In this document: piece by piece, positions 1,766-21,574 of the stretch
Position numbering within the stretch: position 1 is the first letter of the stretch
How the letters are laid out: every line of letters starts with the position of its first letter
Assembly: GCA_947259885.1 (NCBI GenBank)
Contig: CAMYNW010000021.1
Span: 8,836 to 72,835 of the forward strand
Reading direction: 5' to 3'
Origin: an uncultured Gammaproteobacteria bacterium
GTDB lineage: Bacteria; Pseudomonadota; Gammaproteobacteria; Arenicellales; Poriferihabitantaceae
Length of the DNA stretch: 64,000 nt
The notes under the pieces: model-generated
Database searches by the model: none
What the model was told of the DNA's origin: nothing
What the model saw: only the letters and a program-made list of their open reading frames with translations
Made by a program: the position numbers and the translations under genes

Positions 1766-4700
1766 TCATACTAAGCCAAGTATCTCTTGGCCCTGTTTAA
1801 AGTATCTGGGATCAAAAATCCCTCGCTCTCCTCCCATTTTTTGCGCGGCTTCACGGAAGTCAGCGGCAGGATGTAGCGCAATGAAGGCGATATAATCACG
1901 AAAACTTTCTTCGTCCGCCGAAAAGATAGCAACGAGGATGCGGCGGTCTTCGGTAAACAGCTTAAATAATATATTCTCAGAACATTCAAAAAGTCGTGAC
2001 AGTGCTGGTGAGTCATTTAACAGCAGATTCCAGATCACATTACTATCGTAATTGACCAGAAGACGAAGCACGTCATCATTTTGTTTAAAGATTAATTGTA
2101 GTAACAAGGGATCAGATTCAAAAAGAGTTATAAGCACCGCATCCGTGTGAGCGAACAGGCTGCTCAATACGCCCTCACCATGGCTGAACAAGTTTTGTAA
2201 CACGCTGGACGGGGTAGAGAATATTGCATTGAATAGCAGAGGAGAACTTGAAAACACACTGCTTATTACAGAGTCTGGTGAAGCAAAAATAATATTCAGT
2301 GTTTTATCATCATGGGAAAAAAATGAGTGTAAAACAGAGGGGGGAAGTGATAGTAAATGCCAGGCGACATCGATATTGTGTTTCAGTAAATTTTCAAATA
2401 TCGTGGTCTCACGTTCGAATACCAGATCAATCATGTCAGGACGGATATCTACATACTTTCCGTAGTAGTGCACGAATGGCTGGCTTTGAAGTCCGAATGC
2501 CTCAATGGCGGCTCGGTCACGTCCGCTTAAAATTTCTGATGGCAAAATCGCATTTTCTTCTCCGGTGATCCGAGCCTGTAGCATCAATGCACGCACAACA
2601 CCCTCTATATCATCTAAGCTCTTATTAAGTGCATTTACTATTTCAGATAGTGCATTTGGTCCCCAGGAAAAAAAATCTTCAAGCAGCAGCTTGTCGCACT
2701 GAAACAGTTTTTCAAGTGCGTCAGGTGCACAGCTAAAAAGGAGCTCAAGAGATTGACCAGGATACGAGAACAGTTCCCACAACATTGTATTTGATGAAAG
2801 AAATAACTCCCGTAGGGTTTGTTCTGGTAACTGGAATATCAGAATTTGCACATCTGCATTGTGGGTAAACAGGTTTACTAAGACGGCGTCATGGCAATCA
2901 AACAGTCTGATTAGTACATGATCTGAATGCTGTAACATCTGATGCAGTGCTTCATCTGATGTGGAAAGCAGGCGACGTTGTGTATGCAGTGCAAGCCCAA
3001 AGAATGCTCGATGTACCAGCGGGTCATGCTGCACAAAAAGACAATGCAGTAATTGGTCTGGTTGCCAGAATAACTTACGCAATACATCATAAGGTAGTGA
3101 CAATACTTGAGCCAGTGTTGTGTTCGGCATATCAAAGAACTCTTGCAATACTGAATCAGAATGAGAAAAGATCAGATCCAGAAGATCAGCGTGTCCTGCT
3201 ACTTCGCGACGTATCGCATGCAATAAGATATTGGTTCCCTCAGAATCTCCTTTTGGCAATGGTGATTGATCAAGACGCAATCGATGAGCTGTTCCAGTTA
3301 TATTGGCACCTTCGCTACTCATCATGTTCCCTGCGGTCAGTTTTTCTGCCGGAGTGGTATAGAGCTGTGACAGGATTTGTTTGAACTCATCCTCGCCTCG
3401 TTCCAGAATGCTGTAAAGTCGATTATTGTCACAGGATATAAACAATGTAAGCGCCAAGCCGCCATCTTCTGGTGAGAAAATTTTTGACATCACTGATTCT
3501 GAGTGATTAAACAAATTCCATAACAAACTGTCTGAGAGAGAAAATAGCCAGTCCAACGTCTCTTCCTGCTGAACAAAAATGCGCTCAAGGACCAGATCGG
3601 AATGTGAGAAAATCTTTTCTATTGTAGTGTCATGATGATGAAAAACTTTAAGTAATAGCTTTTCCGAGCAAGAAAAGAGTTTTTCAGGAAGAAATCCAGA
3701 GCGTATAAATATTCGCTTGGTGACATATGACGGGTACATAAACATCCACCCCAGCAGGGTGTCACTCAAGGAAAAAAGATCTGTAAATACATCCTCATGA
3801 AGGCTAAATATTGCTGTTAGGGCATCAGGCGGTAAAGCCAGCATATCCGCCAAACTATCATCGTCAAGCACGTTGCATACTTGTTTGAGTCGATCCTGAC
3901 GTTGATACATATTTCTTATTAAAACATTATCAGTATTGGCTTTGAGTAGATAGTGAACCTTGAGCTGTTGCTGTTTTGTCGGCTCGGAAACTGATTGAAT
4001 TGATTCACGGATATTGAAAGGGATCGTGTTAGTTGCAGATGAAGGCGCATAATTATCCTCGCCCTCAAACATTGTGATTACGCTTCTTAACGATGTGGTT
4101 TCACCAGACCATGTTTCACTTTTATTTATCAGCATATTTAAAAAAATATTTAGCTCTTCAGTCTCTTTCGAAAACAACTTCTCTAGCACGTAATCATCTT
4201 GATTAAACAGTGCACTTAGTAACTCATCGGGTGAGCGAAAAAGATCGAGGAGAAACTTGTCTGGCTGTGAGAATAGATTGGTAAGATAAAAATTATCTGA
4301 ATGATTAAAGATCGACTGGATCACCTGACCATCATGAGAAAACAAATCAAACAGCGCTGTGTCAGAACCGCTGAATATTTTTTCGAACACCATGTCTGCA
4401 TGTCGAAATACTGAATCAAGCGTATCGCTTGAGTGAAATATTATTTGACGTAATAGCGTATCAGAATGGTCGAAAAAGCGATTTAGCGCAAAGTGCGATC
4501 GGCTAAACAGTGTTTCAATGACACGGGGCTCGCGTTGCAACAAACTGTCAAGAAAGGATTCAGAACACCAGAATACCTTACGTAATAAGTCCGGCGAGTG
4601 AGCAAAAAATCGATTTAATATCTTTTCATCAAGTGAAAACAAGGCTTCCAACACATTATCTGGATGGTTTGCGATAACATCAATTAATTGCGAGGTAGGA

Positions 4701-4861
4701 CGAGCGTATTTCCCGATAAAAGCAGTGAACACCCAGGAGCTGGACATGCGTTCATTGCTGCTTGGGACAGGAAACTGATTCATGTAATGCCGAAAACGAT
4801 CCAGCACAACGGGACGAACCAGACTCAGGTCATTGTTATTGTTGTCAAAACGCGTTGTCAT
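1766..4861 (-). CDS. 1031-aa protein made of four blocks of an 11-residue tandem repeat (consensus approximately S-x-[SD]-D-x-[LV]-L-x-x-[LI]-F). Function unknown.
   Basis: Long uninterrupted ORF with an ATG start. The repeats are visible in runs such as FFSHDDKTLNIIFASPDSVISSVFSSSPLLFNAIFSTPSSVLQNLFSHGEGVLSSLFAHTDAVLITLFESDPLLLQLIF, where the aromatic residue recurs every 11 residues. I see no signal peptide or TM segment. Confidence 0.8.
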   Translation of the reverse strand: MTTRFDNNNNDLSLVRPVVLDRFRHYMNQFPVPSSNERMSSSWVFTAFIGKYARPTSQLIDVIANHPDNVLEALFSLDEKILNRFFAHSPDLLRKVFWCSESFLDSLLQREPRVIETLFSRSHFALNRFFDHSDTLLRQIIFHSSDTLDSVFRHADMVFEKIFSGSDTALFDLFSHDGQVIQSIFNHSDNFYLTNLFSQPDKFLLDLFRSPDELLSALFNQDDYVLEKLFSKETEELNIFLNMLINKSETWSGETTSLRSVITMFEGEDNYAPSSATNTIPFNIRESIQSVSEPTKQQQLKVHYLLKANTDNVLIRNMYQRQDRLKQVCNVLDDDSLADMLALPPDALTAIFSLHEDVFTDLFSLSDTLLGWMFMYPSYVTKRIFIRSGFLPEKLFSCSEKLLLKVFHHHDTTIEKIFSHSDLVLERIFVQQEETLDWLFSLSDSLLWNLFNHSESVMSKIFSPEDGGLALTLFISCDNNRLYSILERGEDEFKQILSQLYTTPAEKLTAGNMMSSEGANITGTAHRLRLDQSPLPKGDSEGTNILLHAIRREVAGHADLLDLIFSHSDSVLQEFFDMPNTTLAQVLSLPYDVLRKLFWQPDQLLHCLFVQHDPLVHRAFFGLALHTQRRLLSTSDEALHQMLQHSDHVLIRLFDCHDAVLVNLFTHNADVQILIFQLPEQTLRELFLSSNTMLWELFSYPGQSLELLFSCAPDALEKLFQCDKLLLEDFFSWGPNALSEIVNALNKSLDDIEGVVRALMLQARITGEENAILPSEILSGRDRAAIEAFGLQSQPFVHYYGKYVDIRPDMIDLVFERETTIFENLLKHNIDVAWHLLSLPPSVLHSFFSHDDKTLNIIFASPDSVISSVFSSSPLLFNAIFSTPSSVLQNLFSHGEGVLSSLFAHTDAVLITLFESDPLLLQLIFKQNDDVLRLLVNYDSNVIWNLLLNDSPALSRLFECSENILFKLFTEDRRILVAIFSADEESFRDYIAFIALHPAADFREAAQKMGGERGIFDPRYFKQGQEILGLV

Positions 4862-5074
4862 AACAAAGTAAGCCTAAAGTTGATCAAGATCAAATACACT
4901 TTCTCTCGATTTGACAAATTAGGTGGCGAAGTTAAGTATTTTCTAATATACATTTAGTAAAACTTCGACAGGCAGTTATCAGAAAATTGCCAATCGAAAG
5001 TGACTATAAAATAGTATTGTGCTTAAAATTATTATAAGCAATTAGTTTAAAAAACTTCTTCAAATTATTGTAAG

Positions 5075-5099
5075 TGCAGGATGGTAAGTGATTCCTGCA
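5075..5099 (+). promoter_or_regulatory. Small hairpin in the 5' leader of the encapsulin gene
   Basis: TGCAGGA (5075-5081) and TCCTGCA (5093-5099) form a perfect 7-bp inverted repeat with an 11-nt loop. It lies about 30 nt upstream of the ATG at 5131. The SD GAGGAG is at 5119-5124. Confidence 0.25.
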
Positions 5100-5130
5100 A
5101 CCCTAACAACATAACCTTGAGGAGAAGTAC

Positions 5131-6108
5131 ATGGCTCAAAAACTCTTACCCAAGTCCAACGCGGTTGTACTTTCAAGTTCGCACAAGTCGCGCCCTTTTT
5201 GGGAAGGCCGTTCTCCACGATGGATCTGCCAAATGATGATGCAGCGCGCCTGCGTTCCGGTGACTGGTGGTATTTTTCGTTTAAACAAGGTAACTGAACC
5301 TTTTATCCCAATTCAGGTATCCGCAGGGTCGAACTTGATCAATCTTCCTGCCGAAAACCTGAATGTTATGCATTCGCACAATGAAAATACTACTTTATCA
5401 AATAGCTATGCTGCATATGATGAAGCACCGCGAGAAATTCATTTGCAACCTATTCAAACCGTCGTGAAGATGCATACCCGCATTCCAGCATTATATTCTA
5501 CCCATCATAATCAGCTCGAAATGCAGTTAAGTCTGTCTGCGGAATACATGTATGAGTCCAAGGAAAACCTGATCTACAATCATCCAGACTGGGGCTTGAT
5601 AAATAATGTTGCTCCGAAGTTGCAGATCAAAAGTGATGGTGGCCCAACTCCGGATTTACTTGACGACATGCTAAGCCGTGTCTGGAAGGTTCCTGATGTG
5701 TTTGCGATGCATCCAGAGGCTATTGCTTCGTTCAATCAGACTTGTAACAGTATGGGAATTAAGCTTGATACTCTCGAGTTTAATGGTGGTCATTTTGTAT
5801 GTTGGCGCGGTATTCCAATTTTACCGACCAATAAACTTTACCTGCATGATGGCGAAGGAAAGACTCTGCATGATCGTAATCCCGGCAAGTCAAAAACTGA
5901 CATATTGTTGTTACGCATGGGCGAGGACAAGCAGGGTGTTATCAGTCTGTATGCGGCGGGCACCGAAGGCAGTCCAAGATTTCCATTCATTACAGTTGAT
6001 TTCATGGGAATATCTGATGAATCGATCGCTTCCTATATAATGACAATGTACGTAGCGGTTGCTGTTCTGACGGCCGGTGCGCTTTGCAAGGCTGAGGTTG
6101 TCATTTAA
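5131..6108 (+). CDS. Family 2A encapsulin shell protein (SrpI-type, HK97-fold nanocompartment)
   Basis: 325 aa with a strong SD. Strings that match what I recall of SrpI-type shells: RSPRW, GIFRLNKV, VKMHTRIPALYS, WGLINNVAP, GGPTPDLLDDMLSRVWKVPDVFAMHPEAIASF, FVCWRGIPILPTNK, ILLLRMGEDKQGVISLY, VDFMGISDESIASYIMTMYVAVAVLT. There is no cNMP-binding insertion, hence 2A rather than 2B. Confidence 0.8.
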   Translation: MAQKLLPKSNAVVLSSSHKSRPFWEGRSPRWICQMMMQRACVPVTGGIFRLNKVTEPFIPIQVSAGSNLINLPAENLNVMHSHNENTTLSNSYAAYDEAPREIHLQPIQTVVKMHTRIPALYSTHHNQLEMQLSLSAEYMYESKENLIYNHPDWGLINNVAPKLQIKSDGGPTPDLLDDMLSRVWKVPDVFAMHPEAIASFNQTCNSMGIKLDTLEFNGGHFVCWRGIPILPTNKLYLHDGEGKTLHDRNPGKSKTDILLLRMGEDKQGVISLYAAGTEGSPRFPFITVDFMGISDESIASYIMTMYVAVAVLTAGALCKAEVVI

Positions 6109-6123
6109 GGTCCGGAGGTCCAT

Positions 6124-6966
6124 ATGAGTAATCCAACTACACCTGATGATGGATCGTATGCGAGCAACTCATTGACGTCTGGTGAGTATGTATATGCCCA
6201 TGCCGAGCCAGTAACTGGAGGATTCAGCTTGACGGAAGAGGGCGCAACTCCTGCATCATCGGGCCCTTCTACAGAGACAGACCCTGCCAATGAAGCCCAG
6301 GAAGAAGTACTTGAAACGGTAGATCCAGGATCTAAAGAGCACAGCGTGGCCGGTGGTGGAGAATCAATGGCTGAGGACTTGGGCACAATAGAGACCGAGG
6401 AAATTATGGATGAAATGGCGGTTGAAGCGTTTATCCCTTCTGTTCCAGCAGTTCCAGCTGACTTTGCCAGTTCGCCGTGGGCGGATCTGTCGTTTCTGGC
6501 AACGCCAGGACCGATGCCTATGCCCAGTCCAGAACTAGCTGAATCGACCCAACCACCACCGGCAGCTGCAGTATCACCAACAGCTGGATCGTCACCGGAT
6601 GTGCATCCGACTGAAATGCCGGAAACTCCTGTTACTACTGGCGTTTCCGAAATGGCAAGTGGTGAAGCGCAGGATGCACACAATCCAGCCGGTCCGGTTA
6701 ATGTCGAAATGCCCGCGCCTGCGGCAATTGAAACGCCACCGGCGCCGGTCAGCACGCCCCCGGCGCCAGCAGCGGCTGAACCGAATATAGCTGCTGGAGA
6801 GTTGCCTTCGGGCGCAGCCGCTCCAACTGGCGCTGCGGGAACGGCACCAGTAAATCTTGATTCACAAGACCCGGCGGCGATAGAGATGCAGATGCAAATG
6901 AGTGAAAATACTGCTCAGCACATGGCAAAAATTCTGCAGGATATTCTTCAAAGTGAATCACCTTGA
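6124..6966 (+). CDS. Acidic Pro/Ala/Glu/Thr/Ser-rich, predicted intrinsically disordered protein (280 aa) with a short helical-looking C-terminus
   Basis: GGAGG SD at 6114-6118, 5 nt before the ATG and 15 nt after the encapsulin stop. The composition is low-complexity (PAAIETPPAPVSTPPAPAAAEP...). The C-terminal segment AAIEMQMQMSENTAQHMAKILQDILQSESP is the only non-low-complexity part. The antisense 216-aa ORF is a GC-shadow. Confidence 0.7.
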   Translation: MSNPTTPDDGSYASNSLTSGEYVYAHAEPVTGGFSLTEEGATPASSGPSTETDPANEAQEEVLETVDPGSKEHSVAGGGESMAEDLGTIETEEIMDEMAVEAFIPSVPAVPADFASSPWADLSFLATPGPMPMPSPELAESTQPPPAAAVSPTAGSSPDVHPTEMPETPVTTGVSEMASGEAQDAHNPAGPVNVEMPAPAAIETPPAPVSTPPAPAAAEPNIAAGELPSGAAAPTGAAGTAPVNLDSQDPAAIEMQMQMSENTAQHMAKILQDILQSESP

Positions 6967-7095
6967 AACCAATAATCCAGATATGGGGGTTGATAGAATT
7001 AAGGAAGTTGATGGTTCTGTCTTAGGTGTAGTTTTAAACCTTAAAGGTGCTGGAAAATGGATACGACCATTACCAACTAGAGTGCGGTTTATTAA

Positions 7096-7554
7096 ATGAA
7101 TGACGCAATCGCCAGCGCTAATGGTCAAGTTGTGAGCAAGCTTGATCAGTCGGCCATGACAGTCAATCAGATATTCATCATTGGACTGCCAGTACTAGGG
7201 TTTATTTTTGACTCGCCGTGGCCGTTGATATTTACGGCGTCAGTTATGTTAATCGGACTTGTTATTCCGCAGCTTCGTTTGTTCAATCTTATCTATATGC
7301 ATGTGGTCAAGCCGCTCGGTTTACTGAAACCAAATGTCATTAAAGACGATCCGGCACCACATCGATTTGCGCATTTGTTAGGGGGCATATTTCTATTGAT
7401 CGCATGTGGCTTAATATTCCTCGATTACAGTGCATTAGGTTGGATATTCTGCTGGATCGTAGTTGGCCTCGCGCAATTGAATCTGCAGGCACATTTTTGT
7501 GTTGGTTGTTTCATGTATTTGCATTTAAGCAGGCTCATTTCAACCCGTAGCTGA
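7096..7554 (+). CDS. Small polytopic membrane protein, DUF4395-like
   Basis: 152 aa with about 4 hydrophobic segments and a C-terminal FCVGCFMY motif, as I recall for DUF4395. It lies 25 nt upstream of the Trx-TrxR fusion gene. Confidence 0.5.
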   Translation: MNDAIASANGQVVSKLDQSAMTVNQIFIIGLPVLGFIFDSPWPLIFTASVMLIGLVIPQLRLFNLIYMHVVKPLGLLKPNVIKDDPAPHRFAHLLGGIFLLIACGLIFLDYSALGWIFCWIVVGLAQLNLQAHFCVGCFMYLHLSRLISTRS

Positions 7555-7579
7555 CAAAAAATTACCATAAGGAAAGAAT

Positions 7580-9007
7580 ATGTTGTTCGATACGACACGA
7601 TTGTTGATTGCAATTGGTCTTCTGATTATCTTTACTACTGTAATTGGATTGTGGAACTGGGCGCATCTGCGAATTGTGCGCATACGCAGTCGTCATCGAA
7701 AGTGGCCGATGGAAGTTTGGAACGGTAAGGCAACCTTATTGTATTTCAGCACCAAGAATTGTGTCGTGTGTAAATATCAACAGGCCAAAGAGATTGAAAA
7801 AATACGCGAATTATTTTCGAAAGATTTGCTTGATATTAAAAAGCTTGATGCACTCGAACAACCAGAACTTGCGAAACTATTTGGCGTAATGAATGTCCCG
7901 ACCACCGTAATAATTGATGGTCAAGGTAATTTGCACGCATTTAACGCAAATCTGGCGAAGGTGAAGGAGCTCACGCAACAGATTAAGGGTAGCATTGGTG
8001 CGTGTGAGCCGGTGAGACAGAGCTCGATACTGGATCCGGATAAAACTGAAGAAGTAGTTATTGTGGGATCCGGTCCAGCAGGATGGACAGCTGCGATCTA
8101 TGCAGCAAGGGCTCAACTTGCACCATTGGTGTTTGTTGGCGTGGGTGACAAGTTCATGATTCCTGGTGGGCAATTAATGTGGACCACAGAAGTTGAAAAT
8201 TTTCCTGGTTGGCCTGAAGGAATCGAGGGGCCAGCGTTGATGGAGAAGCACCAGGAGCAGGCTATGCATTGGGGGGCGCGGGTTATGGAAACCGATATCG
8301 TTAATATCGATGCCAGTAAAAGGCCTTTCGAGCTTACCGACTCTGATGACAATCTAGTAAAAGCTCAGGCGGTCATAATCGCAACCGGAGCGCGTACTCG
8401 CTGGCTTGGCCTGGAAAACGAGGAGCGCCTGGCACGGAGTGGAGGCGGTGTATCTGCTTGCGCGACATGTGATGGACCAATGCCAATATTTCGTGATCAA
8501 GTAGTAGCGGTAATAGGCGGCGGTGATACTGCTCTTGAGGAAGCACTTCAACTCACAAACTTTGCCAGTCGGGTTCACATCATCAATATCACGCCAGAAC
8601 TTACTGCGAGTCAGGTAATGTGTGACCGCGCGCGCGATAATCAGAAAATTGAATTTCACTTCAACAAAACGGTTATTGATGTGATTGGTGAAGACAGAGT
8701 GGATGGATTGCGTATTCATGATGTCAGCGACAATACTGAATCAACTATGCCAGTGAAAGGATTGTTTGTGGCGATAGGGCATATTCCCAACACCGATTTT
8801 CTTAGGGATATCATGGAACTTGATGAGAATGGATATGTTGTCGTCAAGAAAGCGTTTAGGACCAATACAAGCGTGGATGGTATTTTTGCCGCAGGCGATG
8901 TTATAGACCCAAATTATCGCCAGGCAATAACATCTGCCGGTACTGGATGTATGGCGGCGATGGACGTTGAGCGTTGGTTACAACGTTCGCACGTCGCTTT
9001 GGTTTAA
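7580..9007 (+). CDS. Membrane-anchored thioredoxin-like domain fused to a low-Mr thioredoxin reductase
   Basis: 475 aa with an AAGGA SD. There is an N-terminal TM helix followed by a basic stretch (RIVRIRSRHRK). The Trx-fold segment has CVVC (7760-7771). The TrxB part has GSGPAGWTAAIYAAR (FAD), redox-active CATC (8459-8470), GGGDTALEEA, and the C-terminal GDV..YRQAITSAGTGCMAA. Confidence 0.85.
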   Translation: MLFDTTRLLIAIGLLIIFTTVIGLWNWAHLRIVRIRSRHRKWPMEVWNGKATLLYFSTKNCVVCKYQQAKEIEKIRELFSKDLLDIKKLDALEQPELAKLFGVMNVPTTVIIDGQGNLHAFNANLAKVKELTQQIKGSIGACEPVRQSSILDPDKTEEVVIVGSGPAGWTAAIYAARAQLAPLVFVGVGDKFMIPGGQLMWTTEVENFPGWPEGIEGPALMEKHQEQAMHWGARVMETDIVNIDASKRPFELTDSDDNLVKAQAVIIATGARTRWLGLENEERLARSGGGVSACATCDGPMPIFRDQVVAVIGGGDTALEEALQLTNFASRVHIINITPELTASQVMCDRARDNQKIEFHFNKTVIDVIGEDRVDGLRIHDVSDNTESTMPVKGLFVAIGHIPNTDFLRDIMELDENGYVVVKKAFRTNTSVDGIFAAGDVIDPNYRQAITSAGTGCMAAMDVERWLQRSHVALV

Positions 9008-9162: not shown

Positions 9163-10287
9163 TTATGCCGCGGGCTGGTGCTGCGTCACGCAGTGGACTG
9201 CTCCGCCTTCGGCAGTGAGTGTAACCACCGGAATCGGGACGATTTCCCGATCTGGAAAACAATCGCCCAGAGTTTCGATTGACTGGCTATCTTGGGCGTT
9301 GCCAAATGCGGGCATCAACACGAGGTTGTTAGTGACTAAATAATTTAAATAGCTGGCGTCGGTAAAATGACTGCCAGCACCAAGTGCGGGATCGTGTCGG
9401 TCACCTATTGTAAATACACCGCCTTTGGGCAGGTTTAATGGAATTAATGTCAGTGGACTGCCGTCTTCATCGGTCGAACATTCCAGTTCCTCACGATGTT
9501 TGACAAGGTATGGGTAGCGAGGATCACTGTTGTCGTCTGTCCAGGCATATAGCACTTTATTTTTACCCACAAACCGCGCGGCAATATCGATGTGATAATC
9601 GGTGCCATCACCCAGTTCTTGTTCACAGACATCCGGCGGTGCACCGGATAGCCAGATAACATGATTTACGCCTAGGAATTCACTCAGCACTTTCTCAATA
9701 TCCATTTGATTCAATCCCGGATTTCGATTGTCATTGATGATGGAACTGCGTGTCGCCATCAGGCTGCCCGTTCCGTTGACCTCTATAGCGCCACCTTCAG
9801 ATACCAGGGGAGATACAAAAACCGGCAGATCTAAAATATCTGCGACGGTTTGAGGGATGTGTTTTTCCGCTTTGCCCCAATCCGAATACGAACCCCAACC
9901 ATTAAAATTCCAATCAGTGATCGCCAGGTTTCCCTGGCCATCGATGACAAAAATCGGGCCGGAATCACGATGCCATACATCAACGGTTTGCGTGACATAA
10001 ACGTAGATCTTGTCCATGTTGAAGCCGTAATAGTCCATCGCATCCAGAATATGCTTCCGGTGTACCTCACTCTGCGCCAGGATCTGCACGTCAACGTGCT
10101 GGTGGATTTCCCTAGACATGAGCAGCCAGGTCTTCTCCATCTTCATTTGATAGGAAAAATCCGTGCAATCGGTGGCTTTGGGGTATTTGCCAGGCCATTG
10201 CAGCCAAACTGCGGTTTGCGCCTCCCATTCCGCCGGCATTCGATAGCCGAGTTCTCTTGGCGTTGCGCTTTCGACAATGTTTGCCAT
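9163..10287 (-). CDS. aguA: Agmatine deiminase
   Basis: 374 aa. N-terminal YRMPAEWE..WLQWP, and C-terminal GGAVHCVTQHQP containing the catalytic Cys typical of agmatine deiminase. It starts 3 nt after the aguB stop. Confidence 0.9.
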   Translation of the reverse strand: MANIVESATPRELGYRMPAEWEAQTAVWLQWPGKYPKATDCTDFSYQMKMEKTWLLMSREIHQHVDVQILAQSEVHRKHILDAMDYYGFNMDKIYVYVTQTVDVWHRDSGPIFVIDGQGNLAITDWNFNGWGSYSDWGKAEKHIPQTVADILDLPVFVSPLVSEGGAIEVNGTGSLMATRSSIINDNRNPGLNQMDIEKVLSEFLGVNHVIWLSGAPPDVCEQELGDGTDYHIDIAARFVGKNKVLYAWTDDNSDPRYPYLVKHREELECSTDEDGSPLTLIPLNLPKGGVFTIGDRHDPALGAGSHFTDASYLNYLVTNNLVLMPAFGNAQDSQSIETLGDCFPDREIVPIPVVTLTAEGGAVHCVTQHQPAA

Positions 10288-10290
10288 GGT

Positions 10291-11181
10291 TTATCTGGTT
10301 TTGACCATAATATCGCCGTCCAGCGACATGATCGGACCGTAGTGCTCCGGCCGACGATCCCTGAACAAACACCAGCGATCTCGATGTTCTGCAATTGCAT
10401 CCAGATCGAATTGATGGGCCAAGACCATGGAATCATTGCGATTGGCTTCCGATACTTTTTGTCCTAAGTGATTACATATGAAGGAGGAACCGTAAAATGT
10501 GAGATGTTGATCTCCTTTGGAAGAGGATTCTGTTCCGATCCGGTTTGATGCCACTACCGGCATGATATTCGCGGCCGCATGACCCTGCATAACGGCTTGC
10601 CAGTGAGGTGCTGAGTCATGTTCTATTTCTAATTCTGAGCCTATTGCGGTGGGGTAAAGCAGTACTTCCGCGCCTAAGAGCGCCATACATCGGGCGGTTT
10701 CCGGAAACCATTGGTCCCAGCATATGCCCAATCCCACTTTACCGTAACGTGTATTCCATACCTTAAAGCCGGTATTGCCGGGAGAGAAATACTGTTTCTC
10801 CTGATAGCCGACATCGTTTGGAATATGCGTCTTGCGGTAGACGCCCAGAATCGTTCCGTCGGCATCAATCATCGCCACCGAGTTGAAATAAACTTTTCCC
10901 GCTCTCTCAAACCAGCTTACCGGCAGTACCATTTGCAGTTCCTCTGCAAGTTTTGAAAACCTCTGAATGGTTGGATTCGCATCTAATGTGCTTGCCAGCG
11001 TTAAATGTTTGGTATCCTGTTCAATGCAAAAATAGGGCGTTTCAAACAGTTCCTGAATAAGGGTGATTTGGGCACCCTGGGATGCGGCTTCACGCACAAG
11101 TTGCTCGGCTCGGTCCACATTGTCCTGAATGTTCCAGTCGCAATGCATTTGTGTGGCAGCAAGGGTTACCAGTCTAGTCAT
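10291..11181 (-). CDS. aguB: N-carbamoylputrescine amidase (CN-hydrolase family)
   Basis: 296 aa with nitrilase-superfamily strings: LIQELFETPYFC, YRKTHIP, GLGICWDQWFPE (catalytic Cys). Forms an operon with aguA. Confidence 0.9.
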   Translation of the reverse strand: MTRLVTLAATQMHCDWNIQDNVDRAEQLVREAASQGAQITLIQELFETPYFCIEQDTKHLTLASTLDANPTIQRFSKLAEELQMVLPVSWFERAGKVYFNSVAMIDADGTILGVYRKTHIPNDVGYQEKQYFSPGNTGFKVWNTRYGKVGLGICWDQWFPETARCMALLGAEVLLYPTAIGSELEIEHDSAPHWQAVMQGHAAANIMPVVASNRIGTESSSKGDQHLTFYGSSFICNHLGQKVSEANRNDSMVLAHQFDLDAIAEHRDRWCLFRDRRPEHYGPIMSLDGDIMVKTR

Positions 11182-11308
11182 AATGTCAATTCCGGTCAGA
11201 TATCGGCCAATTGAGCCTGGGTAATGATTGGATTATATAGAGCAGGTTTTGGGTCAGAGCAATAGTTATCAGTATATTTTGTGATCTGTGAAAGTCAGGG
11301 TGTTGCAT

Positions 11309-12096
11309 TCTGTCTCCCGTCTTATACACGCGACCTTCTGAATCAGGGACTTCAGGTAATTGATCCGCACCTACAAAGCTTCGCTCAGTCTCTTCGTCCC
11401 TATTCCAGTAACCGGGGCTAAGTCCAATACCAGCAATATACAGCTCTCCTTCAACACCTATAGGTGTGAGATAGCCCAGCGGGTCAAGAACCTAGTGTCG
11501 ATAGTTAGCTATTGGCTTACCGATTGGCGCTGATGTCATATGCTCAAGCAGGTCGACCGCAGTGGAAATAATCGTAGTTTCGGTGGGGCCATAGCTATTT
11601 AGCAGTCTGACTTTCCCTTTTGTCGCGGCATGCCAGAGTTTCAGATACTCTGACTTCACAGCTTCTCCGCTAATCATTAGGGTATGTACACTTGGCGCAA
11701 GTGGCTGCGCATCGAGTCGCTCCGTTAAAACGCTGAAAAATGCGGTAGGCAAACTAAGGCGCGAAATCTCCATGTCGATAATACGCTCGAGCAGCCTGTC
11801 CGGATCGATCATATCTTCAGTCCGCAGTACGAGCGTCGCGCCTGATCCCAGCGTCACAAAAATATCCTCTACGGAGAAGTCGAAGGCCAGGGATGCGAAT
11901 TGAAGATGCCGATCACTCGGTTGTATCCCGCTGACATCGCCAAAACCGTGGACGTAATTGGACAGGCTTTGATGTTTAATGGGTACACCTTTGGGTACCC
12001 CCGTACTCCCAGATGTATACATGATGTAAGCAAGCTGTTGTGGGTGAACCTCTACAGATGGATTCTGTGTTGAGCAAGAATCAATTATATCGCCTG
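11309..12096 (-). pseudogene. Relic of an NRPS/AMP-binding adenylation domain, truncated at both ends and carrying an internal in-frame TAG
   Basis: Core motifs appear in order: LAYIMYTSGSTGVPKG (A3), SAFDFSVEDIF, NSYGPTETT (A5), IGKPIANYRH-TAG(11492-11494)-VLDPLGYLTPIGVEGELYIAGIGLSPGYWNRDEETERSF (A6), RVYKTGDRM (A7). There is no start codon (upstream stop at 12097-12099), and similarity stops after TGD. Confidence 0.75.
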
Positions 12097-12317
12097 TTTA
12101 GTGTTAGGCACGCGGCATCAGATTTTCGCGCCTCCGTTGCAGTAACGCTTGCTGTTTGGTCGGAGCCATACGTCTGTTCAGAGGATGCTCTGCGAGAACG
12201 GTTGTAATATAGCTAAACTGGCGCAACAGTTACCGAAATTATTGATATGTTTCTTGATCGAAACACTGAAAACTGAGCATACTCGAGTTTTGGCTTCTCA
12301 GCATTTATTTTTTCTGG

Positions 12318-13298
12318 ATGTCCACCACTGTTACTAAATCGCGTTATTGGATGTTTATCGTGGCCGTCATGGCAGTGACAATTGGACTAACAACTCCGGT
12401 TTATAGCAGCGGCTATCCCCCGGTCAATGTCGACATGCAAGCCCGACAGGTCTCTCAGCACGTCTATTATGTGCAAGGCGTTCCGAGGGTCGCCACAGCT
12501 AATGCCGGATTTGTCTCCAATTCATCGTTTGTCGTCACTGAGCAGGGAGTAGTTGTATTTGACACACTGGGAACGCCGTCACTTGGCGCGAAGCTGCTTG
12601 AAGTCATACGTGAAATAACGGAAAAGCCAATTGTTCGCGTATACATCAGTCACTATCATGCGGACCACATGTACGGCAACCAGATTTTCCACGATCTTGG
12701 TGCGGAAATTGTAGCGCCCGAAGGGGCCGTGAGATACCTGTCCGGCGAAGACTCACAACGGCGACTGAAGGAGCGTAAGATCAGCCTGACGCCCTGGGTA
12801 AATGAATCAACTCGAGTAATACATCCCGACAGGTACCTTTACTCAGAAGAAGTTTTCACGCTCGGGGGGGTAACCATGCGCGCGGTTAATGTCGGCAGCG
12901 CACATTCTGACGGTGACATGATACTGTTTGTGGAAAGCGACTCGGTCCTGCTTTCGGGTGATATCATTTTTGAAAACCGGATTCCTTTTCTGGGTTCATC
13001 CAATACCAGGGAATGGCTTGAAATTCTTGACCAGCTGGCTGATTCAGACGCCACGACGATAATTCCTGGCCACGGACCAGCGGCGGTTGATCCCGGGAAA
13101 ATCGTTAGCCTTACCCGTCGCTACCTTTCATACGTTCGACAGGTTATGGCCACGGCCGTCGAAGAATGGGTTCCCTTTGACGAGGCATACGAAAATGCTG
13201 ACTGGACGGACTTTATCGACTATCCGGCGTTCATCGAGGCTAACCGGCAAAATGCCTATGGCGTTTACCTGTCCATGGAACAGGAGTCGCTGGAATAA
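12318..13298 (+). CDS. Secreted MBL-fold metallo-hydrolase
   Basis: 326 aa with an N-terminal hydrophobic signal (MFIVAVMAVTIGLTTPVYSS), the HxHxDH motif (SHYHADHMYG) and later SAHSDGD and PGHG. Confidence 0.8.
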   Translation: MSTTVTKSRYWMFIVAVMAVTIGLTTPVYSSGYPPVNVDMQARQVSQHVYYVQGVPRVATANAGFVSNSSFVVTEQGVVVFDTLGTPSLGAKLLEVIREITEKPIVRVYISHYHADHMYGNQIFHDLGAEIVAPEGAVRYLSGEDSQRRLKERKISLTPWVNESTRVIHPDRYLYSEEVFTLGGVTMRAVNVGSAHSDGDMILFVESDSVLLSGDIIFENRIPFLGSSNTREWLEILDQLADSDATTIIPGHGPAAVDPGKIVSLTRRYLSYVRQVMATAVEEWVPFDEAYENADWTDFIDYPAFIEANRQNAYGVYLSMEQESLE

Positions 13299-13421
13299 TG
13301 CTTCTTCCCCTCTGAGCACGCCACCTTAAAACTATATGGGTGAACAGAGGGGGTTGTTCTGACATAGAATTCACGATGTCTGTCTTAAAGTAGAAGCCAA
13401 AATATTTAGACGAGCAAAACA

Positions 13422-14393
13422 ATGGAAACAATACGTTTCAGTCTTTCGGTTTTCGTAGCGTTGATTCTGGTTGCGATAACCCATACCGCCATAGCGGACA
13501 ACGTGAAAATTACGCCGCTGGGGAGCCACGATGGGGAATTCTGTAGATTTGACCGGGCAATGGTTTTGGAAGATCCGGATGGCACCCGGCTTCTATATGA
13601 CGCAGGTCGCACAGTAGCCGGTCCAGAGGATCCTCGACTCGGTAAGATTGATGTGATTTTGCTCAGCCACATGCATGGTGACCATGTTGGTGACCAGCAC
13701 ATAGCTGAAGTGAACGCAGGCGAGTGCGGCAAACCGGATTTCACCATGAAAGCGGCGCCGAATACGAACACGGTCAACATTGCGCTTGGTAAAAATGCAG
13801 CGATTATCACCGGTAGCGACATGCCGCGTTTTTTTGCCGCAAAACTTAAGGCCCTTGATGGTGATCCCAAAGCTTCTCAACTGGTGCGCTTCGGCGCCTC
13901 GCGCCAAGTTGGGGGCGTTTCGATCGCTACTGTTCCTGCTGTACACACAAACGGGGTTAATCCAGCCTTTATTGGGGGCGATCTAGGCGACATGCTGAGT
14001 GCGGCAGGGCTCGAGATTTCTGCCGGTCCGCCGACTGGTTATGTGCTGACTTTTTCTAACGGGTTAGTGGTCTACCTGTCGGGTGACACAGGCATTACAG
14101 CCGAACAGGATGCTGTGGTTCGGAGACACTACAATGCCAAACTTGCTGTCATCAATATCGGCGATACTTTTACGACCGGACCAACCGAAGCAGCTTTTGT
14201 AATTAACGAACTGATTAAGCCGAACTCGGTGATTCCTTCGCATGCCAACGAAATAGCAACCAGAAGTGGCAAAGTTATCGAGGGCTCAAAGACAGAGGCG
14301 TTCATTTCGAGTACAAGCATACCTGTGCATCTGCCTTTGAGTGGTCGCACCATGGAGTTTGACGGCAACGGTGGTTGTGTGTCCGGCTGTTGA
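13422..14393 (+). CDS. Secreted MBL-fold metallo-hydrolase (second, non-paralogous-looking copy)
   Basis: 323 aa with a signal peptide (FSLSVFVALILVAITHTAIA) and an HxHxDH motif (SHMHGDHVGD). Confidence 0.8.
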   Translation: METIRFSLSVFVALILVAITHTAIADNVKITPLGSHDGEFCRFDRAMVLEDPDGTRLLYDAGRTVAGPEDPRLGKIDVILLSHMHGDHVGDQHIAEVNAGECGKPDFTMKAAPNTNTVNIALGKNAAIITGSDMPRFFAAKLKALDGDPKASQLVRFGASRQVGGVSIATVPAVHTNGVNPAFIGGDLGDMLSAAGLEISAGPPTGYVLTFSNGLVVYLSGDTGITAEQDAVVRRHYNAKLAVINIGDTFTTGPTEAAFVINELIKPNSVIPSHANEIATRSGKVIEGSKTEAFISSTSIPVHLPLSGRTMEFDGNGGCVSGC

Positions 14394-14513
14394 ACCAAAT
14401 CATAGCGGATGCAAAGCTTGCATGGCGACGAAATAGGCCGATTCGAGAAGTTGTTATTTTACAGCGACCCATGCCCCGTTTGAACGATACGGTTCACAGG
14501 TTGTTGATGCAGC

Positions 14514-15449
14514 TTATATGGTTTCGATAAGACCAATCATTTTTTGCCGCGTCGGTTCATCCGGCAGACGTCCGAAACCTGCTCCCATATTGTCGACCAT
14601 ATGCTTTAACTTTGAGGTGGCCGGGATAATGCAGGTCACAGCGGGGTGAGCCGCGATAAACTTCAGAAAAAACTGCCCCCAGCTGGCGCAATCGATTTCC
14701 GACGCCCATGCAGGTAACGGCTTGCCGCGCACCTTGCGAAACAGGCTGCCGCGCTGATAGGGCCGATTGATCAGCGTCGCGATACCGCGTTCCTGCGCGA
14801 TCGGCAACAGGCGTTGTTCCGCGGTCCGATTGAGGATGTTGTAGCTGAACTGCACGAAATCCAGCGGCTGGTTTTGCAGTAAGGTTTCGAGTTCGTCGTG
14901 GTAACGCCCATGAGAAGTGGTAATACCGATGTAGCGGATTTTACCCTGCGCCTTCCAGTCGATTAGGGTATCGAGATGTGTCTGCCAGTCGAGCAGGTTG
15001 TGGATCTGCATCAGGTCTATTCGATCGACGCCGAGACGTTGCATAGATTGCTTCATCTGGCGGATGCCCTGGTCCTTGCCGTTGGTCCAGACCTTGGTCG
15101 CGGTGAAGAGCTCCTGTTTGCCGTCTATTTTTTCCAGCAGTGCTCCAGTAACCGATTCTGCGTTGCCGTACATCGGCGAAGAATCGATCAGCTGACCGCC
15201 CCTGTCGAAAAAAGCCTGCATGACCTCGACTAATGGCGAACTAGCGGCGCCTCCGATGTCGACGTCGAAGGTGCGGGAGGTCCCGAGGCCGATCACCGAG
15301 ATTGGCTCTCCGCTTGACGGAATCATTTTCTTGATGGCGACTGGTTCCATTGCGACGGTATAAGCCGGTGCAAACGTGCAAGCCAGCGACGCTGCACAAG
15401 TGGATTTAAGGAATTTACGGCGGGTAAAATCATTTTCGAATTTGCTCAT
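14514..15449 (-). CDS. Aldo/keto reductase with a twin-arginine (Tat) signal peptide
   Basis: AKR-typical body (GLGTSRTF, DSSPMYGNAE, ATKVW, IDLMQIHN, RYIGITT). The N-terminus MSKFENDFTRRKFLKSTCAASLACTFAPAYTVA matches the Tat consensus S/T-R-R-x-F-L-K. I prefer the ATG at 15449 (1 nt after the upstream gene's stop) over the track's start at 15506. Confidence 0.8.
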   Translation of the reverse strand: MSKFENDFTRRKFLKSTCAASLACTFAPAYTVAMEPVAIKKMIPSSGEPISVIGLGTSRTFDVDIGGAASSPLVEVMQAFFDRGGQLIDSSPMYGNAESVTGALLEKIDGKQELFTATKVWTNGKDQGIRQMKQSMQRLGVDRIDLMQIHNLLDWQTHLDTLIDWKAQGKIRYIGITTSHGRYHDELETLLQNQPLDFVQFSYNILNRTAEQRLLPIAQERGIATLINRPYQRGSLFRKVRGKPLPAWASEIDCASWGQFFLKFIAAHPAVTCIIPATSKLKHMVDNMGAGFGRLPDEPTRQKMIGLIETI

Positions 15450-15450
15450 T

Positions 15451-16764
15451 TCAAATCTCCGGTTGCGTTCGACTGGTTGCTTCGAGGCTGTTGTTACTTT
15501 GCTCATGATAGTTGCCGAGAAAGACTGCGACCAGCGTCCACAACAGCGCTATTGCCGCGGCGATAATCGCAATCGCGCCAAGGCCAAGACCTATGCCCTG
15601 GGCGAGTCCGGTATAGGTCCAGCTGGCGAGGACATCACCGCCCCGGTAGACAACGATATCAATGACGGGTTTGGTTTTAAACCGGGTTTCGCGCTCCACC
15701 CCGGTGAACAGCATTTCCCTCCCGGGTCGTGTAATGGCGTAGTTGCCGGCGCGGCGGATGATTTGCAGGGCGACCATGATTGCGAGCCCTGGGGCGATCG
15801 CAACGGCTGTCCAACCGAGCACCATGATCGCGGGAACCAGCGCGAGGGTCACCGCCAGCCCAAGTTTAGTCGCTAGACGGCTTGTCGCAAACAGCGCGGT
15901 CGCGATAGCCAGCGAATTGACGACCAGGTCCATCATTCCCCAGTATTGGGAACGGGTGGCACGATCGTAGTCGACCATAACGTTTTTCAGCTCGAAGTAA
16001 ACAAAGGTGCTCATCATCGTGTATAGCAGAATGAACAGACCGATAGCCAGCAGGAAACGGTGACCGAGAAAATCGGTAAAGCCTGCGAAAAAATCTCCCC
16101 CGATGGACTGCGTGGAACCTGATGGCGAATCGGGTTTTTCCTCGGTCGCGCCCGCCAATCTCGTCCTGTCGAGAGAAAAAATCAGTGGAATGATCAGTAA
16201 TAGCATCAACGCGGCGACCAGCAGCAGGTTATAGACGCCAAGGATTTCCCCAAGCAGCACCGGGAGGAAGGGCCCGGCGACCGCGCCGATGCTCGCGCCG
16301 GCGCCGAACACGCCGAACAGGCGCCTGGATTGCGATCTCGAATAAATATCGGACATGAAACTCCAGAACACCGAAATATGAAACATGGCGAAAAAACTGA
16401 CCCACACGTAAAACGACTTGTCGATCAGCGCGGTATCGTCAACCCAGTGTGTTGCCGCGAAAAACAGCAGGAAGGAAGCTGCGAAAAAAAGGTATACCCC
16501 GGGAACCAGCTTTTTTAATTCGATTCTGGACACGACGTATCCGTAAGCCAGCACAGCGCCGGCGCTGATAAAAAAATTGAGCGTCCACAACCAGCTCAGT
16601 TCGGCATCGCTCCAGTCGCTGGACATGGCGTCGCGCACCGGCCTTAAAACGTAGTACGCCGCCATCAGGATGAAAACGAACAGGAAGGACATTGCCGCCG
16701 CGGGAATTTCATGCGGCTCGATTTTGATCAGCTTATTGACGTAACGGAGAAATACCGGTGGCAT
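15451..16764 (-). CDS. MFS-type 12-TM carrier resembling NTP/NDP-exchange (TLC/NTT-like) transporters
   Basis: 437 aa and highly hydrophobic. The N-terminal segment FLFVFILMAAYYVLRPVRDAMSS resembles the signature start of the ATP:ADP antiporter-like MFS family. The family assignment is from memory only. Confidence 0.55.
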   Translation of the reverse strand: MPPVFLRYVNKLIKIEPHEIPAAAMSFLFVFILMAAYYVLRPVRDAMSSDWSDAELSWLWTLNFFISAGAVLAYGYVVSRIELKKLVPGVYLFFAASFLLFFAATHWVDDTALIDKSFYVWVSFFAMFHISVFWSFMSDIYSRSQSRRLFGVFGAGASIGAVAGPFLPVLLGEILGVYNLLLVAALMLLLIIPLIFSLDRTRLAGATEEKPDSPSGSTQSIGGDFFAGFTDFLGHRFLLAIGLFILLYTMMSTFVYFELKNVMVDYDRATRSQYWGMMDLVVNSLAIATALFATSRLATKLGLAVTLALVPAIMVLGWTAVAIAPGLAIMVALQIIRRAGNYAITRPGREMLFTGVERETRFKTKPVIDIVVYRGGDVLASWTYTGLAQGIGLGLGAIAIIAAAIALLWTLVAVFLGNYHEQSNNSLEATSRTQPEI

Positions 16765-17224
16765 AAGTTTATTGTCCCGATGCGGTAACCAGCAGTATAG
16801 CCGAATCCCTTTTCACCCTTGGTTAATTGGTAGTTGCTTCAATATTTTACCCTGTCCTCAGTTACCGCGTTTTGCGAGAATTGCAACGACTTCAGCCCCG
16901 AGTTGTCGCAACAGTATTCTTAGATCCGCCTTGATTTTACAGTTGTGGTCATCACCGCCGATCACAATGTATTCGCGCTGCATTACCGACCCGACGATTC
17001 AGATCGACAAGCCTTGTGGCAGCGCCAGCGGGCGGCTGGCGAAGAGATAACGCGACTGGCTATTAGGCGGCAGGCCCCAGCACCAATGCACCATGGAATC
17101 GGGTCAAGTTGAATCTGGGCTTGGACATCAGGCCGGCCAACCTGTCCGCGAAGTTCAAGCTTGCAGTATGATGGCGTGGTGCCGTCTCGAAAGATTTTTT
17201 TAAGGCGCTAACTGGCAGCGTTCA

Positions 17225-18157: not shown

Positions 18158-18547
18158 CTGATGCCAGGATATTATAAGCGGCTCGACGTAATCTTGCGCA
18201 ACTGATGATCGGCGTAGCGGGTGAGTATCTGGGATGATACCGCAAACTAGGTCCCCGGTTTTATCCGGTAAAATCGGTCAGAAATGGTATTGGCTCATGG
18301 GCCAATGCCTCGTTTTGGTTGTAATATCGAGCTTCATAAGGATTGACTCAGCCCTAGAAGTATCTTTTTTCAATTAACCTAGTACCATTCAAAGGTTTTA
18401 TGGCAGAAGGCGGCGCAATCGGTACAGGTTTTAAGGTATTAATTGAGACGATCGGCATAGACTATATCAGCCCAAGTGTTCTAAGAGGTAGATTCGAGCA
18501 ACCGACAACTGTGCTTTAAAACAGGCCTAAAACGGGAGGAAAAGATA

Positions 18548-18601
18548 ATGGCCGATGGCATCCGCCTGGGTGAGCTGCAAATCTACGTGACCACACTATG
18601 A
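18548..18601 (+). other. 17-codon upstream ORF ([17 protein letters not shown]) overlapping the glgC start
   Basis: GGGAGG at 18534-18539, 8 nt before the ATG at 18548. Its TGA (18599-18601) overlaps the glgC ATG (18598-18600). glgC itself has no recognisable SD. Confidence 0.35.
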
Positions 18602-21562: not shown

Positions 21563-21574
21563 TTTGCTAATACC

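Follow-up and report, generated by a model that had tools for sequence, protein, structure and literature searches.

A repeat protein encoded beside an encapsulin shell gene

The DNA considered here, referred to as the window, is a stretch of 64,000 nucleotides (positions 8,836 to 72,835 of contig CAMYNW010000021.1, assembly GCA_947259885.1) from an uncultured gammaproteobacterium of the Poriferihabitantaceae. Near its start lies a gene for a protein of 1031 amino acids (aa), here called REP, that consists largely of tandem units of 11 residues. The gene is transcribed divergently from a gene for a SrpI-like encapsulin shell protein, which is followed by genes for an apparently disordered protein, a DUF4395 membrane protein and a fusion of thioredoxin (Trx)-like and thioredoxin reductase (TrxR)-like domains. 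An initial annotation, made by reading the sequence, had singled out REP as an unusual repeat protein that might serve the adjacent shell as cargo, scaffold or lumen-filling matrix. The computational analysis reported here confirms the repeat and its association with the shell gene, suggests a fold for the repeat unit, and leads to a different view of what REP may do.

Repeat architecture of REP

The open reading frame (ORF) of REP, on the minus strand, is exactly as first annotated, and the "~60 copies" of an 11-residue repeat given there agree with a count of 61 units in register, degenerate ones included. With an iterated position-specific scoring matrix of the unit, 49 strict, non-overlapping units reach 6 bits or more, whereas shuffled sequences contain 0.7 such units on average and never more than 4. 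The autocorrelation of the Phe indicator is 0.40 at lag 11, 0.34 at lag 22 and 0.32 at lag 33, and 1000 shuffles give 0.00 ± 0.03 at lag 11, with a maximum of 0.12. The unit consensus is S-H-S-D-x-V-L-x-x-L-F, in which positions 3, 4, 7, 10 and 11 are the most conserved; position 3 is S/D/P, position 4 D/E/P, position 5 D/S/T, position 7 L, position 10 L/I and position 11 F. The protein as a whole is acidic, with a net charge of −58 and a size of 115 kDa, and its main residues are Leu (155), Ser (102), Phe (84) and Asp (78).

The units are arranged in four blocks of 16, 13, 16 and 16, joined by non-repetitive linkers (Table 1). The four-block architecture had been recognised in the initial annotation, and the limits that it gave for blocks 3 and 4 needed correction by about 20–30 residues; the run of units that it quoted as an example sits at aa 848–914. 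The longest exact run, 11 Phe or Trp residues at 11-residue spacing beginning at aa 352, is found in block 2. The repeat had also been described as old and diverged, and this is supported by the absence of any DNA tandem repeat in the gene that Tandem Repeats Finder could detect, even at score 30, and by a mutual identity of only ~26% between units and 25–38% between blocks. No super-period of 22 or 33 residues is present, as there is no excess of similarity at a unit lag of 2 or 3. An excess is seen at a unit lag of 4 only, or 44 residues (z 2.1–2.9, p 0.002–0.018, in a test that tried eight lags on orthologues that are not independent), which hints at four helices per turn.

The invariance of residues in REP is 0.32 overall, and it is highest for Trp (0.73), followed by His (0.51), Phe (0.51), Leu (0.50), Arg (0.49), Pro (0.47) and Asp (0.45), with Ser as low as 0.14; the His at unit position 2 is invariant in 11 of 16 units. 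The sole invariant cysteines, C711 and C722 (window 2696..2731, minus strand), lie in block 3 exactly one unit apart, a spacing that deserves mention given the linkage of REP to a thiol-redox module. Two strongly conserved motifs outside the repeat, F-[IV]-G-K-Y (aa 48–52; window 4706..4720, minus strand) and P-F-x-H-Y-Y-G-K-Y-x-D-[IV]-R-P (aa 795–808; window 2438..2479, minus strand), each stand just ahead of a 16-unit block. No transmembrane segment is found in REP, in agreement with the first reading: the maximum 19-residue Kyte-Doolittle mean (KD19) is 1.38, and the N-terminus is polar.

Selection, orthologues and orphan status

REP is a real gene under purifying selection. Relative to a close relative, locus L006 (85% aa identity), its dN/dS is 0.18, and the corresponding values for the other genes of the module are 0.05 for the shell, 0.06 for DUF4395, 0.08 for Trx/TrxR and 0.36 for the disordered partner. 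None of the REP orthologues contains a stop codon. Seven orthologues align end to end at 46–50% identity, and in all seven the blocks have identical lengths of 177, 144, 177 and 176 aa; such constancy below 50% identity indicates that the copy number of the repeat has been frozen.

Relatives of REP are few. A word-indexed search of 5.8 billion proteins yielded six REP clusters, all full-length, at 46–50% identity and of metagenomic origin, and an exhaustive search of 1.84 billion representatives with a hidden Markov model (HMM) yielded one full-length cluster and two fragments. These relatives come only from metagenome-assembled genomes (MAGs) and metagenomes, all of uncultured organisms, and "hypothetical protein" is the sole name that REP carries in any source. 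Since no family in Pfam, NCBIfam, PHROGs or PADLOC matches it, the view that the repeat belongs to no named family holds, and REP is, as judged by its sequence, an orphan family.

The other 19 matches of the HMM search (E 9e-11 to 5e-4) form a heterogeneous set of periodic artefacts and were rejected as homologues. They comprise WD40 proteins, translated minisatellite-like perfect 11-mers, a eukaryotic-looking mucin-like protein and two bacterial NP-capped 11-mer proteins. The WD40 proteins P0019 and P0026 match the REP profile weakly and purely through a strand period of ~10.5 residues. Sequence matches to WD40 structures in the Protein Data Bank (PDB; 2ymu and others) go down to 2.8e-9, yet no stretch is individually significant, there is no Pfam WD40 match, and the structure predictions for REP are all-alpha, so that a WD40 relationship was discarded. 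An origin of REP in a defence system or a phage was discarded as well, there being no match in PADLOC, in PHROGs or in phage genomes. Two of the bacterial proteins retrieved by the REP profile, P0016 and P0021, are unrelated to REP; one is TrbI/VirB10-like and the other is a large Big_3_5 surface protein. They carry diverged 11-residue repeats of their own, of the form x-N/D-P-x-L-x-x-x-L-M, that match the Pfam ubiquilin, XPC-binding and Ddi2-HDD models (STI1-type), indicating that STI1-like short-helix arrays exist in bacterial secretion and surface proteins.

Predicted fold

The distribution of residues along the unit suggests that REP may be a folded stack of single short helices, one for each 11-residue unit. 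Pro or Gly occurs at unit positions 1–5 in 29 of the 61 units and at positions 6–11 in only 2. By capping statistics, a succession of S/D/P, then D/E/P, then D/S/T is the composition of the N-cap, N1 and N2 positions of a helix. The blocks contain 40–44% bulky hydrophobic residues and 5–6% Pro plus Gly (39% and 7% in the whole protein), and the non-repeat N-terminus, with 8% Pro plus Gly, is only 53 aa long. Genuine Family 2A loading domains and the disordered protein encoded nearby have 20–27% bulky hydrophobic residues and 18–25% Pro plus Gly. These fractions were used in place of the Uversky charge-hydropathy plot, which is uninformative here, as it calls known disordered domains of cysteine desulfurase (CyD) folded as well. 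Together with the fixed copy number, the composition indicates that REP is a folded protein and not a disordered array of multivalent motifs.

Structure prediction gives a similar picture for the part of REP that was modelled confidently. For block 4, an alignment of orthologues and of the paralogous blocks 1 and 3 (17 sequences) yielded a best AlphaFold model with a predicted local distance difference test score (pLDDT) of 89.5 and a predicted template modelling score (pTM) of 0.84, in which 16 helices of 7–9 residues are separated by 3-residue turns. Full-length REP, modelled from an alignment of seven sequences, gave ~80 helices of 7–10 residues and no strand, at a pTM of 0.27. The initial annotation had left two structural options open. 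The first, a novel solenoid, agrees with the Pro/Gly pattern, the N-cap positions and the models; the second, a continuous amphipathic helix of the 11/3 type, is disfavoured. A period of exactly 11 with hydrophobic positions 6, 7, 10 and 11 spanning ~140 degrees would suit such a helix, as would the many single-residue kinks at the junctions of the low-confidence full-length model. Against it, helix breakers or N-cap residues open most units, both AlphaFold runs restart a helix in each unit, and the polar face is rich in S/H/D/P rather than K/E/A. REP would accordingly appear to be neither a disordered motif array nor a set of long helices of the kind found in late embryogenesis abundant (LEA) proteins and apolipoproteins.

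In neither the PDB nor BFVD did a Foldseek search with the block 4 model find a structural analogue at E ≤ 0.001. The folds that came closest, none of them significantly, were the designed helical repeat DHR8 (E 0.06, TM-score 0.21), a designed fibre (TM-score 0.48) and TALE-type proteins (TM-scores 0.2–0.36), and several phage tape-measure proteins were among the non-significant viral matches. A search with the full-length model (TM-scores 0.10–0.21, karyopherins) was set aside as meaningless because the confidence of that model is too low. If the predicted arrangement is true, a solenoid of single-helix repeats of 11 residues would have one of the shortest alpha-repeat units known, without a solved counterpart. 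The unit would then be of interest for the structure and design of repeat proteins, and block 4 (176 aa, 16 × 11) offers a readily testable construct.

Linkage to the encapsulin shell

In all 11 distinct loci with enough flanking sequence, REP is divergent to the genes for the shell, the disordered protein, DUF4395 and Trx/TrxR. The loci used for linkage were the window, L006–L010, L001–L004, L014 and L017, among which L006–L010 are MAGs of Thiobacillus, Sulfuricellaceae and unclassified Beta- and Gammaproteobacteria. Loci with the REP module span at least four lineages, their outer flanks differ wherever these are visible, and no REP homologue was found away from a shell. Pairwise distances of REP correlate with those of the shell (Mantel r 0.89, p 0.0002), REP diverging about 3–4 times faster. 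At the level of gene linkage, the association between REP and the encapsulin is real and strong, and the link to the adjacent shell that had been proposed at the outset is upheld by both conserved synteny and co-divergence.

The core module also occurs without REP, beside shells of 70% (L018) and 52–54% (L019–L022) identity, where the small disordered protein, DUF4395 and thioredoxin are kept. Since sister clades share the core module without REP, REP appears as a lineage-specific accessory. In L018, which represents the shell clade nearest to this one among those without REP, two response-regulator genes (3676..4887, minus strand) fill the divergent position upstream of the shell gene, and genes for FdhD- or DsrE-like sulfur-transfer proteins lie just upstream in core modules with 52–70% identical shells. 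The large upstream genes of L019 and L021 were considered as REP analogues and rejected, as they have no 11-residue period and no BLASTP similarity to REP; from a reading of their translations alone, they look like polynucleotide phosphorylase (PNPase) and a membrane permease.

The encapsulin module and its surroundings

Table 1. Coordinates in the window of REP, its repeat blocks and the genes of the encapsulin module.
Feature	Position	Strand	Description	Basis
REP coding sequence	1766..4861	minus	1031 aa, ~61 units of 11 residues	ORF, periodicity
REP block 4	1922..2449	minus	aa 805–980, perfect 16 × 11 array without indels; 176 aa in orthologues	
REP block 3	2669..3199	minus	aa 555–731, 16 units; 177 aa in all 7 orthologues	
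REP block 2	3440..3871	minus	aa 331–474, 13 units; 144 aa in 7/7 orthologues	
REP block 1	4172..4702	minus	aa 54–230, 16 units, one 1-aa insertion; 177 aa in 7/7 orthologues	
Divergent REP–shell intergenic region	4862..5130		269 bp, AT-rich	
Shell gene	5131..6108	plus	SrpI-like Family 2A-type encapsulin, 325 aa, no cyclic nucleotide monophosphate (cNMP) domain	
Stand-alone disordered partner	6124..6966	plus	280 aa, Pro/Ala/Ser-rich, short conserved motifs, C-terminal amphipathic helix	
DUF4395 membrane protein	7096..7554	plus	C-terminal CVGC	Pfam PF14340, E 3.1e-27
Trx/TrxR fusion	7580..9007	plus	N-terminal transmembrane helix, Trx-like (CVVC), TrxR-like flavoprotein (CATC)	Pfam; KD19 2.30 at residue 8

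The shell protein matches Pfam PF19307 over residues 75–322 (E 9.5e-62) and lacks PF00027. Its NCBIfam scores of 263 for Family 2A (cut-off 380) and 243 for Family 2B (cut-off 400) both remain below cut-off, and it is 35–39% identical to canonical 2A shells; by these sequence measures it is a diverged subfamily of SrpI-like shells. It also matches the PHROG major head protein at E 0.0014. In the region between REP and the shell gene, promoter-like matches are no commoner than in shuffled sequences, no Rfam element is found, and no shared operator or promoter is conserved, the region as a whole being poorly conserved between loci.

The disordered partner is encoded directly 3' of the shell gene in every clade examined. 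Its family comprises 26 clusters of 231–337 aa without any Pfam domain, always stand-alone and never fused to an enzyme. It is recognised by the motifs SGEYAYGF and SLDLSFL, by long Pro-rich stretches and by a C-terminal MAxxMASILQDVL helix. Its architecture is similar to that of a Family 2A cargo-loading domain minus the cargo, although HMMs of the canonical loading motifs do not match it. The CVGC motif of the DUF4395 protein and the Trx/TrxR fusion, which is represented by separate Trx and TrxR genes in the outgroup L018, suggest a membrane-anchored thiol/disulfide relay that may be coupled to the compartment. No homologue of cysteine desulfurase or rhodanese is found in the window or in any locus of the clade.

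The remainder of the window consists of housekeeping genes, with no phage tail genes nearby. The module is richer in AT than the rest of the window: REP has a GC content of 0.42 and a GC content at third codon positions (GC3) of 0.40, the shell gene has a GC3 of 0.45, and the GC3 of downstream housekeeping genes is 0.50–0.63 (1766..9007 compared with 9163..30634). In other hosts, the GC content of the module is close to that of its flanks. The low GC content fits a relatively recent acquisition of the module in this genome. An ORF of 176 aa at 11492..12022 (minus strand) matches only positions 168–351 of the 384-position profile of AMP-binding enzymes (E 1.2e-33), and appears to be the remnant of a truncated gene.

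Interpretation and alternatives

We lean towards the view that REP is a folded, acidic, His/Asp-decorated helical-repeat scaffold and a clade-specific accessory of an undescribed encapsulin module that lacks a desulfurase and is linked to thioredoxin; any one binding partner that might be named is far less certain. REP, a real protein under selection, would be cytoplasmic and all-alpha, a tandem-repeat protein in which each unit would contribute a short amphipathic helix at roughly positions 4–11, with V6, L7, L10 and F11 in the core, after a turn of three residues at positions 1–3 that is typically S-H-S or x-S/T-P. The units would stack into four solenoid-like blocks of 16, 13, 16 and 16 helices. 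REP belongs, as a lineage-specific accessory, to a mobile encapsulin module of five genes that occurs in sulfur-oxidising Beta- and Gammaproteobacteria. It would most likely act non-enzymatically, as a rigid acidic binding platform, decorated with conserved His and Asp, that touches the shell system by way of protein-protein or ligand contacts. The anatomy of the repeat, the selection on it, its orphan status and its strict linkage and co-divergence with the shell follow from the data directly; we infer both the solenoid fold, from sequence patterns and models, and the scaffold or binding role.

Several points weigh against this reading. Of the five AlphaFold models computed for block 4, four have a pLDDT of 60–64 and a single one is confident, and its alignment was deepened in a non-standard way, with paralogous blocks; the model of the whole protein is poor (pLDDT 47.7). 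A structural partner, a regulator and a hitch-hiking gene cannot be told apart by synteny alone, and the divergent transcription of REP is unlike that of known cargo genes. As for the contrary observations that the initial annotation itself had named, none came to light where they could be tested.

A more ambitious and rather doubtful reading would see in REP an encapsulin component of a new, non-enzymatic class, whose fold has not been seen before: a solenoid of single 8-residue helices, perhaps four per turn and 16 per block. Such a protein would organise a desulfurase-less, thioredoxin-coupled sulfur/redox nanocompartment of sulfur-oxidising bacteria, either from within, where it would be structural cargo or matrix, or by helping to assemble or tether it, and would do so by way of amphipathic motifs of the disordered partner or the shell. 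Should REP turn out to bind the shell or fill it, encapsulins would have their first described structural component that is large and non-enzymatic, and one that offers a handle on compartment assembly, positioning or thiol-redox coupling.

That REP is loaded in the lumen as cargo, scaffold or matrix through its ~60 L-x-x-L-F units, acting as multivalent anchors in a CsoS2-like thread, is unlikely. The idea draws on the loading of Family 2A cargo, for which a disordered N-terminal domain of ~225 aa is responsible; its motifs, such as LARLANEFFS and AASPYYFLDG, contact non-polar patches of the lumen (PMC8049743, PMC10836720). Loading of this type does use short hydrophobic motifs on such patches (PMC10836720), REP is strictly linked to the shell gene, and the module holds no recognisable enzyme cargo. 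Several copies of the 115-kDa REP would moreover fit a T=1 shell, by an estimate from the ~24 desulfurase copies per shell (PMC10836720). A direct comparison of the motifs goes the other way. HMMs of both canonical 2A loading motifs were built from eight CyD loading domains (Synechococcus, Variovorax, Methylosinus, Azospirillum, Aliarcobacter, Acinetobacter, Paraburkholderia and Ralstonia). On REP they score 0 bits or less, no better than on background ORFs of the window, and in the disordered partner they find nothing above that background. The REP unit profile, in turn, gives 2–3.4 bits on genuine loading domains (background frequency 0.002–0.003 per position) and −10 bits on LARLANEFFS, as against 46 positions in REP that reach at least 10 bits. 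The likeness of the units to anchoring motifs, from which the initial annotation had argued, finds no support in these results.

In terms of sequence, REP is without a recognisable loading signal. It has no long (~100–225 aa), disordered, Pro/Gly/Ser-rich terminal loading domain, and its units abut without Pro/Gly/Ser linkers, in a protein of folded composition and fixed copy number. Genes for Family 2A cargo lie next to the shell gene, normally in the same direction and immediately 3' of it; REP adjoins the shell in 11 of 11 loci, but always in the divergent upstream position, and the downstream slot, where a loading domain would be expected, is already taken by the stand-alone disordered protein. 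In sister clades, REP is dispensable for the core module. Nothing in common was found between REP and the disordered partner by hhalign. A similarity of the form MP[ST]P..AE between the N-terminus of REP and the disordered partner had been noticed by eye and was dropped at an hhalign probability of 0.1%.

It is improbable that REP is an STI1-like array of grooves for transient amphipathic helices or hydrophobic ligands, serving as a holdase or assembly chaperone. As clients one might consider conserved motifs in the disordered partner, or S8 or polysulfide as hydrophobic ligands. Transient helices within disordered regions are bound by STI1 domains (PMC8010706, PMC13083955), and the disordered protein encoded near REP has a conserved C-terminal amphipathic helix. 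The REP profile weakly retrieves bacterial proteins whose 11-mers match Pfam UBQLN1, XPC-binding and Ddi2_HDD, and a marginal XPC-binding match is seen at aa 909–936 of REP (E 0.096). Nevertheless, just one of 17 block sequences reaches even E = 0.13 against a model of the STI1 group, there is neither a structural match nor an hhalign link between REP and the disordered partner, and STI1 domains are small Met-rich bundles rather than arrays of 60 helices.

No greater probability attaches to the idea that REP is without a direct role in the compartment, whether it regulates the divergent operon, serves that operon as a signalling scaffold, or is an unrelated passenger of the island. Divergence from a common intergenic region is typical of regulator/target pairs, the outgroup with the 70% identical shell has two response regulators at the same position, and REP is missing from sister clades. 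A regulator or passenger is nonetheless hard to reconcile with a protein that has no DNA-binding, sensor or enzymatic domain, that co-diverges with the shell, and that is linked to it in 11 of 11 loci over Beta- and Gammaproteobacteria with varied flanks, with no REP found off-shell.

Least probable of all is a REP made of continuous 11/3 amphipathic helices or a tape-like rod (apolipoprotein/LEA/perilipin-like or tape-measure-like), which would coat a hydrophobic particle such as elemental sulfur, or bear a Trp or Phe every 11 residues as a marker for partner proteins: the tape-measure pattern [FW]-x(10) ×7 at 9 positions of REP (PMC3271669), the several weak, non-significant viral fold matches to tape-measure proteins and the capsid ancestry of the shell speak for it, but REP has no apolipoprotein, LEA or perilipin Pfam match, no PHROG match and no match in 50,697 phage genomes, lies near no phage tail genes, and has a fixed copy number where that of tape-measure proteins varies, in addition to the helix-breaking start of most units.

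Comparison with known systems

Among proteins with an 11-residue period, REP can be compared with apolipoproteins A/E, LEA group 3 proteins, perilipin and alpha-synuclein, with which it shares an amphipathic period of three helical turns. In these proteins the helices run on without a break for 22 residues or more and have polar faces rich in K/E/A; in contrast, the helices predicted for REP have 7–9 residues, its units bear an N-cap/Pro/Gly signature, its content of Leu and Phe is far higher, and Pfam finds no match. Phage tape-measure proteins carry 11-residue repeats of Trp or Phe (Belcaid et al. 2011, PMC3271669), and REP is like them in its length of ~1000 aa, its all-alpha character and its aromatic residues at a spacing of exactly 11. 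It also conforms to their Pattern 1, [FW]-x(10) repeated at least 7 times, which has 9 matches in REP and at least one in every orthologue. Unlike tape-measure proteins, REP has no PHROG homology and no tblastn match in 50,697 phage records, its neighbours are cellular genes, its copy number is fixed, and a helix-breaking turn is found in each unit.

The "helical hand" of the STI1/DP/ubiquilin/XPC-binding group likewise places short, N-capped amphipathic helices (~8–12 residues) about every 11 residues. REP falls below the profiles of this group (E 0.096, 12.8 bits vs a cut-off of 26.4; one block at E 0.13), its caps are S-x-S/P-D and not D/N-P, and it has ~60 helices in four arrays where STI1-type domains have 5–6 in a small bundle. 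The likeness of REP to both STI1-type and tape-measure proteins is one of pattern, an analogy and not membership.

A further comparison is with the alpha-solenoids (HEAT, ARM, TPR, PPR, TALE) and designed helical repeats, with which REP would share tandem amphipathic helices, predicted to stack, in an elongated non-enzymatic scaffold. It differs from them in that its unit has 11 residues and one helix, compared with 24–47 residues and 2–3 helices, and in that it has no 22- or 33-residue super-period, no Pfam match, and structural matches with TM-scores of 0.2–0.48 of which none reaches an E-value of 0.001. In its setting, REP is reminiscent of CsoS2, the carboxysome scaffold of ~900 aa, which is also large, repeat-built and non-enzymatic, and which is devoted to an organelle with a protein shell; its chain is intrinsically disordered, with flexible linkers between its short motifs. 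The encapsulin literature itself likens discontiguous shell binding to CsoS2 (PMC10836720). REP, unlike such a disordered chain of short motifs and flexible linkers (PMC10836720), is hydrophobic, predicted to be folded, and made of contiguous units.

The module as a whole can be compared with the Family 2A systems, such as SrpI/CyD of Synechococcus elongatus and the desulfurase encapsulin of Acinetobacter baumannii. In common with these, it has a SrpI-like shell that lacks a cNMP domain and, immediately 3' of the shell gene, a gene for a Pro-rich disordered polypeptide bearing short conserved motifs; the context is likewise one of sulfur and thiol redox, the hosts here being sulfur oxidisers. 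It departs from them in that there is no cysteine desulfurase, rhodanese or CysE/CysK, the disordered protein is stand-alone and without canonical motifs, the shell is only 35–39% identical to canonical ones and below the NCBIfam cut-offs, and DUF4395, Trx/TrxR and the 1031-aa REP have no counterpart in described operons. In a large-scale survey of encapsulin operons, those of Family 2A are treated as desulfurase systems, and no mention of an encapsulin together with DUF4395 is found in the searchable literature. An operon of a diverged shell, a disordered protein, DUF4395 and Trx with or without TrxR, lacking a desulfurase, appears to be undescribed. Whereas characterised Family 2A encapsulins all package a cysteine desulfurase through its disordered N-terminal domain, the locus in this window represents a different type of operon, one that recurs in at least 11 loci of sulfur-oxidising Beta- and Gammaproteobacteria and that has REP in one clade.

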